Shown in pieces: positions 1,912 to 32,179 of a stretch of 64,000 nt of DNA (position 1 is its first letter; every line of letters begins with the position of its first letter). Below the pieces are notes generated by a model, which did not search any database, was not told the origin of the DNA, and was given only the letters and a program-made list of their open reading frames with translations. Position numbers and translations under genes: made by a program. This DNA is from a virus, in the IMG/VR virus record IMGVR_UViG_3300025288_000012, positions 32,001-96,000 of that record; one strand, written 5' to 3'.

Positions 1912-4900
1912 TTAAATTCTTTGAGTGGTCTTAAGGTCGGCAAGCTCTTGTTTGAGCTCCGCGAAGTTTGTCACTACGACACCTTCAGCTCGCATGGAAC
2001 GCACGAATGAGACCAGCTCTGACCTAGCGTTGAAGAACTTGATGTTAAGGCCAGATGCTTCGGCAAACTTCAGGCTCCTTGTACCAGGAATGACTTTGTT
2101 CAGGTGTCTCTTGATTGAAGGGTTGGTAGCAATGTCAACTGTCAACATAAGGCTGCCGTTAAGTATGACCGGGTAGATCTTAAGCTCAGGCCTGCCCTTT
2201 GCATCCTTGCCGCTAAGTTTGTGACGTAGCAGGTAGAAGTTTTTGAACTCTGCAACTGGCGCGAGCTCGACTGCAAATTTCCGGCCTTTTCCGCTCTGAA
2301 ACGAATCCTGCAGAGACTCCAGGCGTCTAAAGATCGGAGTGCTTATGGAGAACTTCGCATCCAGGTAGTCAAGTAAGGCTTCAAAGGATTTTTGGTCCTT
2401 CACTATGGTGTAGGCATAGTCACCAAACTGCTTGAACCCATACGACTTAATGTCAAACTCCGGGTCTTCAGGGCTACCTTCAAGTGCAAGGAATCCATTG
2501 TAGACTACGGGGAACAGCTCAATGTTGAGATTCTGTTCTTCCTCGTCTTCTTCAGGCTCTGGTTTAGGCGCACGTTTCTTCTTACCGAGACCAAGAATGG
2601 TCTTGGCAGCCGCAGCCGCAGCCTTCTTAGCTTCCCTGGCTTCTTGACGCTCCAAGGCTTTACGCGCACGTTCTGCCAGAGCCTTGTCACGTTTGGTAGC
2701 GAGCTTCGTAGTTGGGCCAAAGTCCTTGACGTTATCCTTGGTCACGTTAGTGGCAAGGAAGATCATCGTGGCTGCACCACTGTACGTGTCGCCGTTTGCC
2801 AGCTGCACATCAACCCTAGTGATACGCCGAGCAGCTTCCAGCTCGTTGTCACTTATGCCTTCGACCTTAGGAGGCCGAGATAGGCCAACGCGGCTTATAA
2901 CACCGTTACCGAACTCGGTGTGGACGTAAGAGCCGATAAGGTTCTTACGATCCTTGAGGATAGCCTGAACCGCTGGGTCTTCAGTATCTTGAAGGTACTC
3001 ATTTAGACGCAGCAGACCGAAGTCATGGCGATCCGGAACCTCCAAGTTCGGAACGTAAGGTACCTGCTCAAGTATGCGAGCTTCCTTGAACATAGGTGTA
3101 GGAGGTACGTCCAACATAGTTGACGGACCAGATTGGCGCATGTCCTCAAATTCGGCAGCCTGAATGTGGACCAAGTTTGCGTATGCCTCGATGTACTCCT
3201 GAATGTCAGAAATAACCGGAACACTTGCGATGGTGTCCAAGTTCATACGGATCAAAGGAAGCTGCTGCTCTGCAATTGCTGCATACAAAGGGTTTCCAGC
3301 TTCGTCGAACTGCGTCTTAATGAGCATCTTAGAAATCAGACGCCCCATCTTCGCAACTTCTAGGCTACCGTTGCAGATAATCCAGTCGAGGTACACATTC
3401 TCCCGAGAGAACTTCTTGGAAGGATCAGGACGGAAAATACGCGAGGACGATTGGTCCAACTCACCAGGTGACCAGGGTGACTCCATACGAATGATGCGGC
3501 TAGCACAGTTGTGCACCAAAACGGGGATAAGCGTATTGTGTCTATCGTTTGACCCAGCACAAGCAAAGAAGTTGTGGTTACCCTTTACGTTAAGGTCGTA
3601 CTTGTAATCTCCAATAAGCTTCTTGGATTTTCCAAATGTTATTGATGTTACGGTAAGGTAGTGGTTGTTGATGAAAGACTCAAGGCGGGCACGAGTATCG
3701 GCCAAAGTAGCCTCATGGTAGCACGAATCTGCATCTACAATCAGGCATTCGATACCAACTTTAGCATAAGCCTTTATCAACTCTCGGTCATACTTCTTGT
3801 CCCTGTAAGCACGAGCCCCAATTACTTCAACAACCTTGTAAGTTCTGCCTTTAGAGTTCAAGTGATTTAGGGATACGAAATCTGGGTTTTTGTTTACGGT
3901 ACGACCACCCATTGTTAACGTTACCCAATAATCACCGTCACCCGTGTACGCAAGTCCCTTTATACCAAGATCAATAACATTACTCTCTGGGATGTTTAGT
4001 AATGTACCTTGAGCCAGCAACATAGCGCCTACGCCAGCCTCAGTGTACCCTGGGATGTTAGCATGGCACCATGCAGTTGCAGCGCTCTTGCGTTGCCTTG
4101 CTTCGGGTGTAGAAAGGGCTGCCTGTAGCCGTGCGCTGTGTAGATCTCTCATGCCGGGCTTTGCCCAGTGTTTCCGTAGAGATTTTGAGATCTTGCGTTT
4201 AACCTCGGGTCGGGCATTAACTTCTGTGCGAGTGGCTGACATCTGTTCTTGAGCGTCGAGATCTTCATAATAACGAGTAAGCTTTTCCTCTATAGAGGAA
4301 CGACCTTCCGGAGAAGAATAAAACTTCTTCAACGACTTTGAAAGAGTTTCTGGGCAGGAGTTGAAGGGTGAGAACTTTCCGCCATACGTTATGAGTTGAT
4401 CACCAACTTTCAGGTCTCGTGCCTCAATCTCGGAGCCATCCTTAAGGAAGACCGGGTGTTCTTCAGTTAGAAGTAACGGACTAGCCTCACCTGTACGGTT
4501 ATCCTCAACTCTTACGTTAAGGTACACATCCTTTGGTTTAACTTTGTGCCGTAGCTTACCATATATCTTACGTTTCTCTATCTTGCGGGTCTCAAGGTTG
4601 TAAGAAAGTACATGGGTAATCTCAGGATTGGCATAGATTTCACCAATAGACATTGACTTTCGGTAGTCAATCATTACCTGAGTTTGAGCAGGGAAGCACT
4701 GAAGGTTGTGGCCCTCGGAGATGGATTGCTCGTTGGCGATTAAAATTTGCGGGTCCTTCGTAAGGCTGAAAGGTGATGTCTTGAATCGGTCAAACCCTTC
4801 CATCTTGTTCTTGACTTCGCCGTGGAACTTGATTGCTATCTTCTTCAAGTCAGGTGGAAGTGCCTTGTACACCGCATTAACGGTACGAGTGTAACGGCAG

Positions 4901-7900
4901 AACACAATGACTTTACCTTGGGGCTCGGGCTTCCAACGTGGATCCTTGGCCGGGTCGATGTGAGATTCGTACTCTAACTCGTAGTCGTCGAGCGTCAACA
5001 CTTTTCCTGGGACACCCATGAGTACATAACGCTCACCGTTAGAGTCAGCGAGATCTTTCAGCTTGTACTTCTTGCCTTTAACCCAAGGATACTTGTCGAA
5101 GTTCCTACGAATACGCTCTATGCACTTCTGCACTTTGTTGCTAACGAAGTTGTCTTTCGCCATACCACCGAAGTACACTTCACCGAAGGGGTCACCTACA
5201 GGATCGGTAAGTAGCTGCTCAAGGCGGGCCAAGTACGGCTCCAGCTTAGACTCAAGGTCTGCGAGTGTAGCGTCATCCAGATCGTTGTCTGTAGGCAACA
5301 CCTGCGGTGCACCATCGTCATCCTCGTCGTCATCATCTTCAGAATGGCCTTGCAGAAGTGCCATTACATCCTTATCCTGCTTGATCTCCTCCAGAGTTTC
5401 CTTAAGGATAGCGTCGTACATCATCTGGTGAACAAGTCCACCTTCAGCGTCGGACTTCTCCATACGAACAGGAATGAAGGTCTCAATAGGACGGGGTAAC
5501 ATGAACGCCCATTCCTTACGCTTGGCAGTAATGACAGCCGCATGTTTTGAAAGCTGTGCTCTTGCAAGTTCAGGAGTGTTGGGCTTCCAGGTCATGACCT
5601 GGAACGTGCCGAGCTGTTCACTATTCTCTGCCTCGTACTCTTCAGCAGTACGGAAAATCTGAGCATTGAACAACGCAGCCTGACCAACAACGTCAGTCAA
5701 ACGGTCCTTAATCAAGGTACCTGTTGCAAGACGCACGTACTTTACGGTGCTAGCTACCATCACCTGACGCAAAGCCTTGTGCACGCCCGAGTTAACGTTC
5801 TTACCACGATGGGATTCGTCAAGCGCAATGTACTCGAATCCGAACTTACGGGCGAACTCAAGAACAGCAGACACGCTCTCAACGTGGTTACCAATAACGA
5901 TTGGATACTTGTCAAGTTTAAGCACTGACGTACTCATAACGATGATGGTGTTGCGCGGAGCTTCCTTAATGAGCTTCGTCAAACGCTCGTCACCCCAAGT
6001 ACGGTACACAGCAGTAGTGATTGGGATTACGTTCCACTTGCCTTCAGTGACCTTATGAAGGTCTTCCACCCAGTTACGGACCAGTCCATTAGGTGCAAAG
6101 ATGCAAGGCGGACCTTTGATAAGGCCCTTGCCGACGATTCCTGCTGCATCTGCCAGAAGCAAAATGGTGTTATGCCCATAAACACCTCCCACGGAATAAG
6201 AGTGAGGGCCAGGGACACTAAGGTCGTAAACATCCTCAGGTGAATCCTCCTTAGAAGACTTTACAAACACCCAGTACTTGGAGAGTAGTGTATTCAGGGT
6301 CTCAAGAATACACTTGACCCTTGGGCTCTTCAGCAATTGACTCCTTATCATCGGTTCAAGCGCTTCTATAGCTCGTACCAGGCGAATTACTGAATAACGG
6401 TTAGTCGCTCCGTGTGGGTATTTAGCGGGCGCTAAGTTCCGGCCCATGCCACTATCTCGAAGTAGCTTTTGAACAGACCAGGTCTCAGTCCGACCACCAC
6501 TGCCCCGCGTATTAGTTGGTACGTCGTACTCAAATTGAGCTAAAGTATCCTCAAGGTGCCCTACAAGTTCGCAGGTAAGGGCATGAGCTGGAAGCTTATT
6601 CCACTTACCACCAACCTCCATATTGGTAGTTTGCTTGGCCTCATAGCTGGACCAGTTCGTTTTTGCGGCTGCACTTTGCAGTTTACTATGTTTCTCTTCA
6701 CTTAAGAAGCCAATGCACTCTGCAAACTTTGGGATGTCTTTCCAGTCTACACCGAGAGTGTGAACTCGCTTGGGGTGGTCATGGTTATTGGAGTAGTACT
6801 TGTCACCTATGCCCATTGTAACAGGTATGCCCATGTTCTCCATCATTAACTTGACCTGCGTGGCGAGCGCGGCACTTATGGTACTGTACTGTATACGCCA
6901 GATTCTTCTCTGGTTAGCCCCAGTGCTACCGTGCCATATTGAGCCGTCACCCTCCCACAGTGATCTAAGGAATGCAATTTGGTACCGTTTAGGGGCAGCG
7001 CGTATACAACGAGGAACCTCCTTGAAGGAGGACGTGCCCAACACTAGCTCACGCCTGAGAAACTCAATTACGTCGGTGAAACTTCTAGCTACACCAACAC
7101 TTGTTCTACGGCTATCTATCTGGTGATAGGAACCAGGACCGAATACAGACTCGAACTTCGCTATGTAGCGTTCGCGATTTGCTGTATGGTGTTGCTCAAA
7201 GCTTATGGTTTCGGCATCAGCAGGTGTGTAGCCCTCTGCTACCAACCATCCGAACACCTCGGCCATGTCCTCTGAAAGTTTAATAGACCGATTGCCAAGT
7301 GCTAGAGTAGGAGTTCTAGTTGCATAAACTTCGTCACCTATGGCCTTAGAAATCCACATGCCCTTTCTTAAGTCATTAAGCTGAATAAACTCTTCATCAA
7401 GCGACCCACTTTCAAGTGCCCACAATTTATGTTCGGGCAGGCCTTGTATAGAGGAACCGTCTGAAAGCACGACCTTGCGAGTTCTCCCAGCTGACTTGAA
7501 TGCTTTAGTTGCTTGGACTACCGTTCTTTCATGTGATACTACCTCTACTTGATCTAAGCTCTGGAAACCGTTTCTTAGTGAATTTGGGTCGGACTGATCC
7601 CACAACTCTGAAAGCTTCAAGAGTCCACTTGTGGTTGGTACTAAATGGTCACCGGTAAGGCACTTGCCACCACCTGGGGCGACGTCCAGTACTGCGTAAC
7701 GAGGATGGTTCTGAAGGTATTGGTGCACCTTCAATTGGTGCGGGAATACCTGAAAGCCGCTCTTTGAACCAGGCATCACAATGTCGCTAGCAGTGATACT
7801 CTGATTACGCTGATTGGATTCCTCCAGTTCGTTTGCCTTTTCTATAATGGTGCTACTGTTAACTGTGTACTTGCCCAGTATAACGATTGCAGGCATTACT

Positions 7901-24234: not shown

Positions 24235-25317
24235 TCATCTGATCGGTAGCGTTTTGTGTATAAAGTTCAACCCTTCGGTAGGTTGTAGTACCCTTACGTT
24301 GACCTGCCAGTCAAGATTACGGTCTTCGGCCGTTCGCAGATACTGTTCATCCGATATCTTGAACGTAGTATTGCGTGAAGGAACATGAATAATGTCACCT
24401 GGAGCTACATCCCTTATTGTCATTGGTAGTATTATTTGGATGTTACCTAAGGTGTCAAACATAGTCCAGTCTGTAGCCTTTGACGCCTGCGATAGATTGG
24501 CCCACACACGTTCTGTACCTAGATCGAACTCTATAACTGCATGGGTGAACATATCACTCATGCAGCGCACTAGTGCCACACCACCTGAGGATGCCCTTAA
24601 GTACGCTTCAGTAATAGGCATCCCAGTGCTGTCAACAAGAACTTCGTCAACCAGCAATGAAGTGTTATTCCGAATCGAGTACGCTACACCCTTAAAATAC
24701 TTTGGAACCTCAACAACGAAGTCAACATAGCCTTGAGCCGGGTCCAACTTTACTAGAGTATGAGGACTAGTAGTGATGTTCTTGTGGTAGCCATAAGTGT
24801 CTGCTATGTCGAAAGTAGTAAGAACTCTGCGATCATGACCGTAAAGCTCAAATGCTGGTATGTGTCCCGATCGGTAGCATATACCGCAATCTGCACTTGA
24901 GGAGAACAGACTATCGACGCGATCTACACCAGAGTCATCGTCCACAAGGGCAAACTCGTCTTCATCGGATTCATCTTCTGCTGAAAGTGAATCACCAACG
25001 GCACCGAACAAGGGCCTTACATAGTCGATGACTATTTCCTGGTCAGCATTTCCGTTAGTTTTGGTCATTGTGGCAGTCGATGCAGACTTTCCAACGGGTA
25101 GTTCTGTTTGCTGACAGGTACAGAGTTGCACTGAGGTACACTGGTGGTAGTATTTTACCTCGAATGAATCCACACCTAGTGCTTCTAAACCTTGGTTTTG
25201 GTAACTGGTAACCACCTCTCGTAGACGGGCATCTGCTTGCTTGTGAATATAGTTCTTAGGGTGCCTACGCTTGATAACGCCAGTTCCTTTGGTAATCATG
25301 GCCAATTCCTTATTCAT
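24235..25317 (-). CDS. Putative virion structural protein (head-closure-like, tentative)
   Basis: 360 aa, Cys clusters (CTCQ, CGIC), beta-rich C-terminus. Confidence 0.5.
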   Translation of the reverse strand: MNKELAMITKGTGVIKRRHPKNYIHKQADARLREVVTSYQNQGLEALGVDSFEVKYYHQCTSVQLCTCQQTELPVGKSASTATMTKTNGNADQEIVIDYVRPLFGAVGDSLSAEDESDEDEFALVDDDSGVDRVDSLFSSSADCGICYRSGHIPAFELYGHDRRVLTTFDIADTYGYHKNITTSPHTLVKLDPAQGYVDFVVEVPKYFKGVAYSIRNNTSLLVDEVLVDSTGMPITEAYLRASSGGVALVRCMSDMFTHAVIEFDLGTERVWANLSQASKATDWTMFDTLGNIQIILPMTIRDVAPGDIIHVPSRNTTFKISDEQYLRTAEDRNLDWQVNVRVLQPTEGLNFIHKTLPIR

Positions 25318-25429
25318 TTGACCCTGTAAAATTACGAATAGAACTGTAAAGGATCAAGTTCGGTTACATTTCAAATTCACCCTCGCTTTGTGTAATTTCA
25401 ACTTCACATACAATATTTAGGAAGCACAA

Positions 25430-25477
25430 ATGCACATGACGCTGCTCGGTCTTGATCCTGGGAAAAACAATGGCTAG
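25430..25477 (+). pseudogene. Orphaned 5' stub of a RuvC-like gene
   Basis: ATG..TAG reads MHMTLLGLDPGKNNG*, i.e. the RuvC first motif (hhhxDPG); AGGA upstream; overlaps the ATG of the next gene. Confidence 0.65.
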
Positions 25478-27026
25478 ACGTAGAACTACAACTCCAGAAG
25501 GTTATAGGAAAGCCTTAACTGAAAAATATGGTAAAGACACTTATCTGAGTGGATTTAAGTCAATGTCGGCACCAGCACTCCACACTTGCCCCAAGTGTGG
25601 AGTGGAATTTTTGAAATCACCTGGACTAATGTTGGGTAGTAGGAGATATGCAAACTGCTTGAAATGTTCTCGCGCAATAACTACATTAAAACAGAGAGTA
25701 CCAGAGAAAAAGTTTAGGGTTGCACTAAAGAAAAAGTTTGACTACATTGAATGTTTGGCCTATACTACTAATCACAAGCCATCAAAATTTAGATGCGGAC
25801 TGTGCGGGAATGAATGGGAAACAAAAGCATACGAGTTGATGAAACTTAAACATGGCTGCCCCGTGTGTGCTAGTGTTGAGGCAGCTCGTGCGACTACTCA
25901 CTCTATTGAAGAAATACGCGAGCAGCTTAAAGAAGCAAATCCAACTTTGCGAGTACTGGACACGAAGAGAAGGAAGGACAAAGGGTTTGTACAAGTACAA
26001 GGAGAGTGTGGTCACAGTTGGATTGCCAGTATAGGAAACTTGGTCCATAATAAAACTGGTTGCCCAATTTGCTCAAAGTTCAAAGGAACTGAATACAGGA
26101 CCACAGCCAAGTTTGTGCATCTGGGTAAACGAAAAGTTGCAGTTGAAGGGTCTGAGCACATAGCTTTAAAATTTCTGTTGAAAAAGGTTGCCGCTACTAA
26201 AATAGCCGTGTTTAGTGAAGGCACTATAGACCCAGTGCCCTACACTTTTCAATCGGTAGAAAGAGAATACTGGCCTGACCTTAAAATTGGACCAAGACTA
26301 CTGGTGGAAGTAAAGTCGACCTACACTCTGTTCAAGGATTTTTTAAAGAACAAAGCCAAGGTAGCAGGGTGCAATAAAGCAGGGTTCAGAATAAAATTTC
26401 TGGTAGTTGTAGGTAACAGGACTATCGTCCTGCCTAAAGAATGGACAACCTGGAAGCAAGATAAAGTAGAAGCCTACCTTAGGACAAAAACTTTAAACTC
26501 TTTAAGGGTGCTATCCTTAGACCCAGGTGTTACAAATTTTGCATGGGCAGTTACTGAAGCTGATAGGTCAAGTATGCTAGTTCTAGCGTCAGGAATGCTA
26601 AACAATACCATAACAGACTTGAAGGTAAGTATAAAGGACCAGTCTAAACTATTTAAGGAAGAGATACTGGAGATAATTCAAGAGTACCAAGTAGATAGCA
26701 TAATACTAGAACGGTTTATGTCACGAGGTCATGGTGGAACAACTATAGAACTTGTAAACATAATGATAGGTGTTCTTCTTGGCATGCCTTGTGCCGCATT
26801 AAAGAGGTGGAAATTAGTTACAGCCGCGCAGTGGAAGAATGAATGGAACCGTAGAGCAGACCTAAGTGCATTTTATTCAAAAGTAAGTGGAACCGTACAC
26901 CAAGTTGATGCAATAGGAATAGGGATGTACGGAATTGACACATGGTTCGATCAAGTACCATTCGATTATCTGACGGACGACTTTCAAAAGAAACTTGCTT
27001 TAAACATAAGCCGTACTTCAATATGA
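25470..27026 (+). CDS. Fusion: Zn-ribbon repeats + PD-(D/E)xK endonuclease + RuvC-like Holliday junction resolvase
   Basis: CxxC pairs; YWPDLK..LVEVKS; then VLSLDPGVTNFAW, IILERF, HQVDAIGIG. ATG at 25470 (track start 25452 is TTG). Confidence 0.8.
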   Translation: MARRRTTTPEGYRKALTEKYGKDTYLSGFKSMSAPALHTCPKCGVEFLKSPGLMLGSRRYANCLKCSRAITTLKQRVPEKKFRVALKKKFDYIECLAYTTNHKPSKFRCGLCGNEWETKAYELMKLKHGCPVCASVEAARATTHSIEEIREQLKEANPTLRVLDTKRRKDKGFVQVQGECGHSWIASIGNLVHNKTGCPICSKFKGTEYRTTAKFVHLGKRKVAVEGSEHIALKFLLKKVAATKIAVFSEGTIDPVPYTFQSVEREYWPDLKIGPRLLVEVKSTYTLFKDFLKNKAKVAGCNKAGFRIKFLVVVGNRTIVLPKEWTTWKQDKVEAYLRTKTLNSLRVLSLDPGVTNFAWAVTEADRSSMLVLASGMLNNTITDLKVSIKDQSKLFKEEILEIIQEYQVDSIILERFMSRGHGGTTIELVNIMIGVLLGMPCAALKRWKLVTAAQWKNEWNRRADLSAFYSKVSGTVHQVDAIGIGMYGIDTWFDQVPFDYLTDDFQKKLALNISRTSI

Positions 27027-31747: not shown

Positions 31748-32179
31748 ATGATAGCATTTGATCTCGATGGAGTACTGCAGCCTGATTTGCGATACACGAA
31801 AAACTTCAACCTGGTAGAGGTTAACTCCGTAAGGAATCTAATGATTCCCTTGTACCAACCCAAAGGAAAATGGTGTATCATAACTTCAAGGTCGATGGAG
31901 GATGCAGACGAGATAGCACGGTGGATTGACAAGTCATTTGAAGTTAAACCTGCGCTTGTAGTTCAGTCTTGCAGAGAAGGTGAGATTAGCAGCGTGTACA
32001 AGGCACGCATGTTGGACAGGTACACGAACATAACTGCCTATATTGAGAGTGACCATGAAACTGCTTTGGACATAAAGGCAAACATGGTTCGCAGAGATTG
32101 TGCTATACTGTCATTGACCAATCTATTGGATAGAGCACTTAGCGAATCCATGATTCTCACAACTATATTCGCGGTGTAA
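31748..32179 (+). CDS. HAD-superfamily hydrolase
   Basis: N-terminal FDLDGV, ITSR, YK, YIES. Confidence 0.7.
   Translation: MIAFDLDGVLQPDLRYTKNFNLVEVNSVRNLMIPLYQPKGKWCIITSRSMEDADEIARWIDKSFEVKPALVVQSCREGEISSVYKARMLDRYTNITAYIESDHETALDIKANMVRRDCAILSLTNLLDRALSESMILTTIFAV

Follow-up and report, generated by a model that had tools for sequence, protein, structure and literature searches.

The 64,000-nucleotide (nt) stretch of viral DNA analyzed here, hereafter the window, corresponds to positions 32,001 to 96,000 of virus record IMGVR_UViG_3300025288_000012 and is part of a 190.9-kb IMG/VR record, about 78% complete, which is present in aquifer and groundwater metagenomes and whose proteins are similar to those of jumbo phages of Erwinia, Dickeya, Vibrio, Xanthomonas and Burkholderia. 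The locus under study consists of a 15-codon open reading frame (ORF), here called the RuvC stub, and of an overlapping ORF of 518 amino acids (aa) which encodes a homing-endonuclease-like module fused in frame to a complete RuvC domain (Table 1). An independent ENA contig has a stub and junction identical to those of the window, and contigs from four further aquifer or groundwater runs span the junction without insertions or deletions, thereby ruling out an assembly artefact. The record, at its approximately 78% completeness, gave a single RuvC-like match and no second RuvC.

The stub holds the RuvC start codon, strand beta1 and the first catalytic motif, and is cut off after the codons for DPGKNN. 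The Shine-Dalgarno sequence ahead of it is taken to be the original RuvC ribosome-binding site, and the claim of the first-pass annotation of this DNA that the mini-ORF keeps the ribosome-binding site and the first motif of RuvC was confirmed by that sequence, by the translation of the stub and by the existence of homologous stubs. The ATG of the large ORF at 25470 lies in the +1 frame relative to the stub, with an 8-nt overlap in which ATGGCTAG contains both this start and the stub stop codon; it has no good Shine-Dalgarno sequence in front of it, and a TTG at 25452 represents an alternative, less likely start. When the stub is compared codon by codon with its internal counterpart in the large ORF, RVLSLDPGVTNFAW, DPG..N is present in both, while the codons and three residues differ.

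The 518-aa protein was modelled by AlphaFold with a predicted local distance difference test (pLDDT) score of 87.9. Its N-terminal part carries three treble-clef zinc ribbons, two of which are complete CxxC...CxxC ribbons (C40/C43/C63/C66 and C109/C112/C130/C133), the third being one cysteine short (C180, C198/C201). DUF723, DUF4379 and CapR-like repeats constitute modular DNA-binding arrays of phage homing endonucleases (Barth et al. 2023, PMC10448857), and by analogy this array is presumed to be the DNA-recognition module. Across representative proteins, the zinc-ribbon repeat was detected in 4,053 at E ≤ 0.001, often as arrays with 4–9 separately matched stretches in proteins of 600–1,270 aa. 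The array is followed by a PD-(D/E)xK nuclease domain that matches Pfam DUF7487 (47.6 bits, against a cut-off of 27) and whose motif residues are invariant in 11 sequences, free-standing forms included. Modelled alone, this domain reached a pLDDT of 94, and its best structural match was the catalytic domain of TnsA (1t0f; VIA-align Z 8.0, root mean square deviation (rmsd) 2.9 over 105 residues); tRNA-splicing endonuclease, Vsr, I-Bth0305I (Z 6.1), Hjc and I-Ssp6803I (Z 4.9) were among the further top rows, as were two mitoribosomal-protein rows. The domain is predicted from these models to have a restriction-endonuclease-like fold, the Z scores being in the range of a shared fold and not of membership in the TnsA family. 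A Foldseek search with the nuclease domain returned nothing at E ≤ 0.001, its weak rows being mainly PD-(D/E)xK enzymes, and a sequence profile search of the PDB gave weak zinc-ribbon and RuvC rows only, with none for the nuclease domain.

The C-terminal domain was matched to PHROG 18317 ‘Holliday junction resolvase’ (E 5.6e-35 over residues 344–503) and, under the cut-off of 22.2 bits, to Pfam PF02075 (18.4 bits). Foldseek searches with the RuvC domain of the model returned RuvC of D. radiodurans (7xhj, TMt 0.73), RuvC of E. coli (1hjr, TMt 0.72, rmsd 3.3 over 158 columns) and a Lactococcus phage RuvC (4ktw). The four catalytic residues are invariant in 24 fused homologues, and judged by the model this domain has both the fold and the catalytic tetrad of RuvC. 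The zinc ribbons, the PD-(D/E)xK nuclease and the complete RuvC that had been noticed in the first-pass annotation are thus all present in the 518-aa ORF.

Table 1. Features of the nuclease-RuvC locus and of other regions of the window (positions are those of the window; L numbers denote loci and contigs of the comparison set)
Feature	Position	Strand	Evidence or remarks
RuvC stub ORF, 15 codons, MHMTLLGLDPGKNNG followed by a stop codon	25430..25477	+	Translation; likeness to stand-alone RuvC starts; homologous stubs in L006, GR7B and L014
Shine-Dalgarno sequence AGGAAG of the stub	25419..25424	+	5 nt ahead of the ATG at 25430; GAGGAAG at the equivalent place before the L006 stub
Fusion ORF, 518 aa, homing-endonuclease-like module and RuvC	25470..27026	+	Translation; Pfam and PHROG matches; about 25 full-length fused homologues
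Zinc-ribbon array, three treble-clef ribbons, residues 40–201	25587..26072	+	Pfam DUF4379 and DUF723; PHROG 681 and 559 (endonuclease)
PD-(D/E)xK nuclease domain, residues 211–342	26100..26495	+	E229 (GSE229), P269-D270 (WPD270), E280-V-K282
RuvC domain, complete, residues 344–518	26499..27023	+	D351, E414, H477 and D480; PHROG 18317
Internal counterpart of the stub, RVLSLDPGVTNFAW, residues 346–359	26505..26546	+	Intact first motif of the presumably working RuvC
Synteny anchor, upstream gene, 360 aa, divergently transcribed	24235..25317	-	45–57% identical to the upstream genes of L005, L006, L007, L009 and L017; 42.5% to that of L018
Synteny anchors, two downstream genes, 179 and 196 aa	27059..28175	+	Identity to subclade relatives 46–54% and 43–50%; to L018 39% and 37.5%
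Hairpin within the nuclease ORF	25576..25604	+	Inverted repeat
ORF of 437 aa	51545..52858	+	Deviant composition

Stand-alone RuvC genes begin in the same manner as the stub, for example that of Erwinia phage pEa_SNUABM_1 (MRILSGDPGKVNFA). In the IMG/VR jumbo contig L022, the RuvC start (MKIIALDPGKNNFAAA) has DPGKNNF contiguous, as had been expected of related RuvC loci, and the match to these two starts also removes the objection, raised beforehand, that the stub might bear no similarity to the RuvC starts of relatives. Stubs were found in four loci, in each case directly before a homologous nuclease ORF, namely in the window, in Vibrio phage GR7B (MADTGIYRVLSFDPGKINGLSR, followed by a stop codon), in the metagenome contig L006 (MYITTLGMNPGSKNYLEIQNAW, followed by a stop codon, with the catalytic Asp replaced by Asn) and in L014 (RSIVILANDPGTANY). 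These stubs end with DPGKNN (window), DPGKIN (GR7B), NPGSKNY (L006) and DPGTANY (L014), and all four ends on the RuvC side are located at the Asn of DPGxxN or one codon further. The stops of the out-of-frame stubs overlap the nuclease ATG, by 11 nt in L006 and 17 nt in GR7B as compared to the 8 nt of the window. The stub of L014 is in frame, its protein P0012 starting with MTRSIVILANDPGTANY and running on into the nuclease so as to contain two DPG motifs; this stub is 73% identical to the start of the stand-alone RuvC of contig L018, and the downstream copy of L014 itself matches it at 8 of 15 positions. Differences between the stubs of the window and L006 fall mostly at third codon positions. 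Since homologous stubs recur at three other loci, the stub of the window is, on this comparison, almost certainly a relic of a RuvC gene and not a product of chance. The nuclease ORF of L006, the closest relative of the window, is broken in its first zinc ribbon by at least two frame breaks (2039–2240 of that contig), and its start was called at an internal Met; the breaks represent either early decay of the DNA-recognition part or Logan contig errors.

Phage GR7B (L001, MT366760.1) carries an unannotated 22-codon stub at 2853–2921, then a 282-aa nuclease (2905–3750) and then a complete RuvC, which opens with a GTG that overlaps the stop codon of the nuclease. This RuvC ORF extends from the GTG at 3743 (3743–4417), the corresponding GenBank gene, GR7B_00097, starting at an internal Met at 3869 and missing the DPG motif. 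The sister phage GR11A, which shares with GR7B both the isolation host, one strain of V. coralliilyticus, and the hatchery of origin, possesses at the equivalent locus one uninterrupted RuvC (MSSEVYRVLSFDPGKYNFAY) and no nuclease gene; the upstream spacers of the two phages are 75% identical, their flanking proteins 58–65% and their RuvC proteins 70%. Over 14 residues, the GR7B stub and the downstream copy are identical in translation, and the nine nucleotide differences between them are all synonymous, an outcome that was obtained in none of 200,000 random placements of nine changes. Because all nine differences are synonymous, both copies would have been parts of selected RuvC genes until recently, and such a pattern is expected if the stub is the start of the recipient’s own gene.

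A second such case is provided by L018, a 99.9-kb contig of the window’s backbone clade, in which RuvC is a stand-alone protein that is 45% identical to that of the window (for the flanking genes, see Table 1). The N-terminus of this RuvC retains the last helix of the nuclease domain (YMKTK vs YLRTK), suggesting that L018 lost the nuclease, and when the DNA preceding this RuvC was searched for traces of the nuclease gene, matches were at chance level only. A 527-nt gap that seemed to precede the L018 RuvC was dismissed as an artefact of a truncated upstream gene call: the upstream gene, called as 257 aa, occupies 2215–3297 on the minus strand, where a tblastn search with the 360-aa protein of the window covers 362 residues up to 3297. 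The nuclease is thus polymorphic at this locus among close relatives, being found in GR7B but not in GR11A, and in subclade A but not in L018. Furthermore, with GR11A and L018 both uninterrupted at the syntenic locus, the situation that had been named as contradicting the first-pass annotation, in which relatives carry the same fusion and no uninterrupted allele exists, was not encountered.

Members of the same nuclease family were also found in other settings. In Dickeya phages JA33 and JA11, two ‘DNA repair helicase’ genes flank a 375-aa nuclease homologue, which is encoded on the other strand; in JA33 (L003, MH460462.1), the ‘putative DNA repair helicase’ at 1985–5091 is annotated as two genes, and the unannotated 375-aa endonuclease gene is located at 2896–4023. 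The JA33 homologue matches DUF7487 with 66 bits, contains zinc ribbons of the same type and has a weak Pfam TnsA-like match. The N-terminal helicase half of both phages ends in a Hint module (CFTAGH...) and the C-terminal half opens with an intein C-terminus (...VLVHNC), so that the JA33/JA11 locus is, as far as its sequence indicates, a split-intein ‘fractured gene’ with an endonuclease that is neither Vsr nor GIY-YIG. Free-standing nuclease homologues of 252–404 aa with other N-terminal modules were found as well, and the family therefore appears in recognized mobile contexts, i.e., in a split-intein helicase and in free-standing forms. The published Dickeya phage genomes accordingly contain an unannotated endonuclease and split intein.

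Splicing does not appear to operate at the RuvC locus, as the first-pass annotation had surmised. Pfam finds no Hint domain in the fusion, where the stub ends in a stop codon and the large ORF lies in another frame, and Rfam searches at E ≤ 0.1 gave no intron match, nor one to any other RNA family, in the window, GR7B or JA33 loci. Moreover, because the RuvC that follows the nuclease is whole from before strand beta1, the stub is redundant and not an exon, which leaves nothing to be ligated.

It is probable that the locus represents a free-standing homing endonuclease cassette at the 5' end of RuvC, whose target gene has been restored by duplication of its 5' end and fusion; cleavage and homing are steps that we infer. 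The nuclease would cut cassette-free RuvC alleles at or beside the DPGxxN(F/Y) codons of the first catalytic motif, a site that is predicted because the stub end is constant across four loci. Repair off a cassette-bearing co-infecting genome would then copy in the nuclease together with a whole RuvC, and the first 14–18 RuvC codons of the recipient would remain as the stub, along with the native upstream region, Shine-Dalgarno sequence and start codon. The endonuclease would be translated by coupling to the old RuvC initiation signals, as is suggested by the overlap of the stub stop with the nuclease ATG and by the lack of a good Shine-Dalgarno sequence before that ATG. RuvC would not be spliced in this scheme, its complete copy being supplied downstream, fused in frame here and in more than 25 relatives and, in GR7B, as a separate gene with coupled restart. 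After fixation, the stub and the nuclease site would decay, while the fusion would stay since its clean removal must recreate the RuvC start; this requirement may explain why lineages with a dead nuclease remain fused, and the persistence of the fusion in these lineages fits the earlier remark that the element is hard to lose. Two histories would yield stubs of this kind: the cassette may have arisen once and then homed repeatedly, the stub being renewed from each recipient, or breaks at one shared cut site may have been joined several times independently. Support for the notion of a homing-type element at the DPGxxN codons, with the resolvase as its in-frame C-terminal domain, is thus drawn from the match of the stub, the uninterrupted alleles and the four stub ends that fall within one codon.

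With regard to its spread, about 25 full-length fused proteins that are 31–50% identical to the query were found in metagenomes and two more in IMG/VR, and the fusion is also carried by Xanthomonas phages PhiXhv-12, -15 and -16. A megablast search of the locus against 50,697 phage records returned no match, and no close relative was found in a scan of IMG/VR using the fusion protein. About a third of the fused homologues have lost or deleted PD-(D/E)xK residues (P0011, P0016, P0021, P0023, P0025–P0029 and PhiXhv-12). The fusion gene of the window is A-rich, as first noticed, with an A content of 34.4% and 37% A at third codon positions compared to 23 ± 5% in 36 other window ORFs; its GC content at third codon positions (GC3) is 0.36, compared to 0.50 ± 0.06, and the deviation is as strong in its RuvC domain (GC3 0.33) as in the nuclease part. 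Among fused genes whose nuclease site is intact, those of the window, L005, L006, L007 (0.45 vs 0.58–0.59 in adjacent genes) and L015 (0.51 vs 0.57–0.66) lie below their flanks in GC3, while the dead-site fused genes of L017 and PhiXhv-12 are equal to their flanks in composition. On the basis of the deviant composition of its RuvC domain, the fusion may have displaced a resident resolvase, as the first-pass annotation suggested; the fusion is old and widespread, and not an event confined to this phage.

Pairwise distances hint at transfer of the cassette between lineages. The L015 backbone, at 27–29% identity, is as distant from subclade A as any outgroup, but its RuvC is close (46–55%); the RuvC of L014, for which there is no backbone gene to compare, is 47–57% identical to subclade A, and the nuclease parts of L014 and L015 are 30–43% identical to it. 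For GR7B, the nuclease is comparably close (27–39%), but its RuvC is not (33–38%).

Several observations weigh against the interpretation as a homing cassette. Among the eleven fused loci with upstream DNA, a stub is present in three (the window, L006 and L014) and missing from eight, indicating that it is unneeded for keeping the fusion, and the stubs of the window and L006 look orthologous, so that they could stem from one old insertion instead of recent invasions. Within the window’s subclade, the fused gene (RuvC 51–62% identity, nuclease 32–51%) is approximately as diverged as the backbone (45–57%), a pattern which would fit long vertical inheritance equally with spread among related phages. 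The low GC3 could reflect weak expression and not a foreign origin. In a maximum-likelihood tree of the RuvC domain, the deep nodes were unresolved and L018 was not placed, with the result that neither its loss of the nuclease nor a transfer to L014 and L015 was supported or rejected. Finally, no cassette-free form, joint or loose end was seen in the contigs of the four other runs, contigs being prone to drop rare variants, no RNA run is among the sequencing runs listed for this virus, and a search of the phage’s own genome found no second nuclease copy in the 190.9-kb record of about 78% completeness.

Much of this would also agree with an old, domesticated and vertically inherited two-nuclease repair protein, whose zinc-ribbon and PD-(D/E)xK half might, for example, now aid or target the resolvase or degrade host or competitor DNA, and whose stub would be a leader ORF left from an old local rearrangement. 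The fusion is kept in more than 25 diverged homologues, its divergence follows the backbone within the window’s subclade, most fused loci lack the stub, and lineages with a dead PD-(D/E)xK site retain the zinc-ribbon part; in addition, the stub stop always overlaps the nuclease ATG, which makes selection of the stub as a leader possible. Such a history nevertheless leaves unexplained the common end codon of the four stubs, the synonymous-only divergence of the GR7B stub, the absence of the nuclease from the same locus in GR11A and L018, and the presence of homologues between split-intein halves. Nor does it account for the frequent loss of the active site, paired as this is with flank-like composition, and we judge this alternative unlikely.

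Two further explanations concern the stub itself. An A5 run at 25463–25467, in which one base fewer would fuse the frames of the stub and the large ORF, raises the question of whether the stub is read through into the large ORF by a +1 shift on GGG-AAA-AAC to give a stub-nuclease-RuvC protein, and L014 indeed encodes such an in-frame product (P0012, with its two DPG motifs). Against this, the out-of-frame state is identical across independent assemblies and samples, the overlaps of GR7B and L006 differ in sequence and have no A run, and termination and reinitiation typically involve an ATG inside the final codons of the preceding ORF, making read-through very improbable. Still less credible is a chance mini-ORF or assembly error with no RuvC history: the stub comprises just 15 codons and DPG peptides are not rare, in that of ten matches to the DPGKNNF pattern in IMG/VR eight were unrelated to RuvC and two were RuvC proteins (distant, at 30% identity and with no synteny), but its position, ribosome-binding site, start, length before the Asp and motif are as in real RuvC starts, homologous stubs stand at the equivalent place in three other loci, and its sequence is identical in other assemblies. 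The exact pattern GLDPGKNNFA had no match in IMG/VR.

The proposed homing cassette can be compared with several known systems. The free-standing homing endonuclease genes of T4-like phages encode Seg and Mob proteins, which act by intronless homing, and in phage Aeh1 an insertion of mobE reportedly divides nrdA into pieces that still work. As in these genes, there is no intron or intein at the RuvC locus, the element is present or absent at the same locus among relatives and lies in or beside a conserved gene of DNA metabolism, and its spread would be expected to proceed via double-strand-break repair and co-conversion of flanks. It differs from them in its location within the initial codons of the target, of which a dead stub is left, in that RuvC is neither intact alongside nor in two working pieces and is instead supplied whole downstream, mostly fused in frame, and in possessing a canonical PD-(D/E)xK nuclease and not a GIY-YIG or HNH one. 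Insertion at the catalytic-motif codons of an important enzyme, and persistence tied to the function of the host gene, are features shared with the endonucleases of inteins and group I introns; the RuvC locus, unlike these, has no splicing, a stop codon and a change of frame follow the stub, and the downstream RuvC is complete.

Fractured genes contain free-standing endonuclease genes between split-intein halves, and such genes are also found inserted without an intein (Dassa et al. 2009, PMC2677866). The present element resembles them in being phage-borne, and the JA33/JA11 homologue has exactly that layout in a helicase gene. The RuvC locus, however, has neither an intein nor trans-splicing, function having apparently been restored by duplication of the 5' end and fusion, and the endonucleases described in PMC2677866 are of the GIY-YIG type or similar to Vsr, the latter group having since been named the EDxHD family, whereas the nuclease of the RuvC locus has an E...PD...ExK motif. 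Its predicted restriction-endonuclease-like fold is shared with I-Ssp6803I, I-Bth0305I (PMC3239194) and TnsA of Tn7, although there is no detectable sequence relationship to I-Ssp6803I and I-Bth0305I, the motif is E...PD...EVK and not EDxHD, and recognition would rely on a zinc-ribbon array. The T5orf172 endonucleases of ICP1-like phages (Barth et al. 2023, PMC10448857) are similar in having a repeated modular CapR/DUF723/DUF4379 zinc-finger array before the nuclease and in their association with boundaries of genetic exchange between phages, but the catalytic domain is here a DUF7487 PD-(D/E)xK domain, and no fusion of nuclease and target gene is reported there. In the literature searched, which was covered in part, no description of a nuclease-RuvC fusion or of a comparable stub was found.

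Homing endonucleases persist in important genes within self-splicing introns or inteins, or between genes. The locus described here suggests another solution, in which the target is broken at its first catalytic motif and a replacement copy is brought along fused to the nuclease. All stages of a homing cycle at one locus seem to be represented among the loci compared, i.e., fresh invasion with a stub still imprinted by selection, fixation of the fused form, active-site decay and probable loss, while GR7B and GR11A, as a cultured pair on one Vibrio host, make a test of homing practical. It has also been possible to assign a likely role to Pfam DUF7487, and the fusion explains why many jumbo-phage contigs contain a RuvC of unusual length that is labelled ‘hypothetical protein’. 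A PD-(D/E)xK nuclease that is sequence-specific and reads DNA through a modular zinc-ribbon array may, in addition, be of practical interest.

A more speculative and, in our estimation, doubtful extension is that fusion to the target is itself a persistence strategy, forming a third route beside introns and inteins: with the resident RuvC start destroyed and the only working copy being the C-terminal domain of the element, selection for the resolvase would protect the selfish part. Dimerization of RuvC may furthermore give a one-site nuclease the two sites required for a double-strand cut, and the cassette could serve as a weapon against co-infecting relatives by cutting their RuvC gene.

A number of minor observations were made at the locus and elsewhere in the window. 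The possibility of a DNA-level constraint on the internal DPGVTNFAW codons, as a protected or recognized site, was dropped because their synonymous positions vary among loci as they do at other motifs. Within the nuclease ORF, approximately 106 nt past its ATG and over the codons of the first zinc ribbon, there is a hairpin formed by a perfect 13-bp inverted repeat with a 3-nt loop (CACTCCACACTTG / CAAGTGTGGAGTG) and followed by GAATTTTTGA, with an RNA folding energy of -23.6 kcal/mol (z -2.5). Relatives do not share this hairpin, which resembles a terminator or attenuator and might restrict nuclease expression; apart from it, a scan for sigma-70 promoters and terminators gave nothing usable for a jumbo phage. 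The divergently transcribed 360-aa gene upstream of the stub has no Pfam match. The 437-aa ORF located further downstream in the window, which likewise has no Pfam match, is deviant in composition like the nuclease-RuvC gene (GC 0.384, GC3 0.358, third-position A 0.338), and may be another recently acquired or mobile gene.

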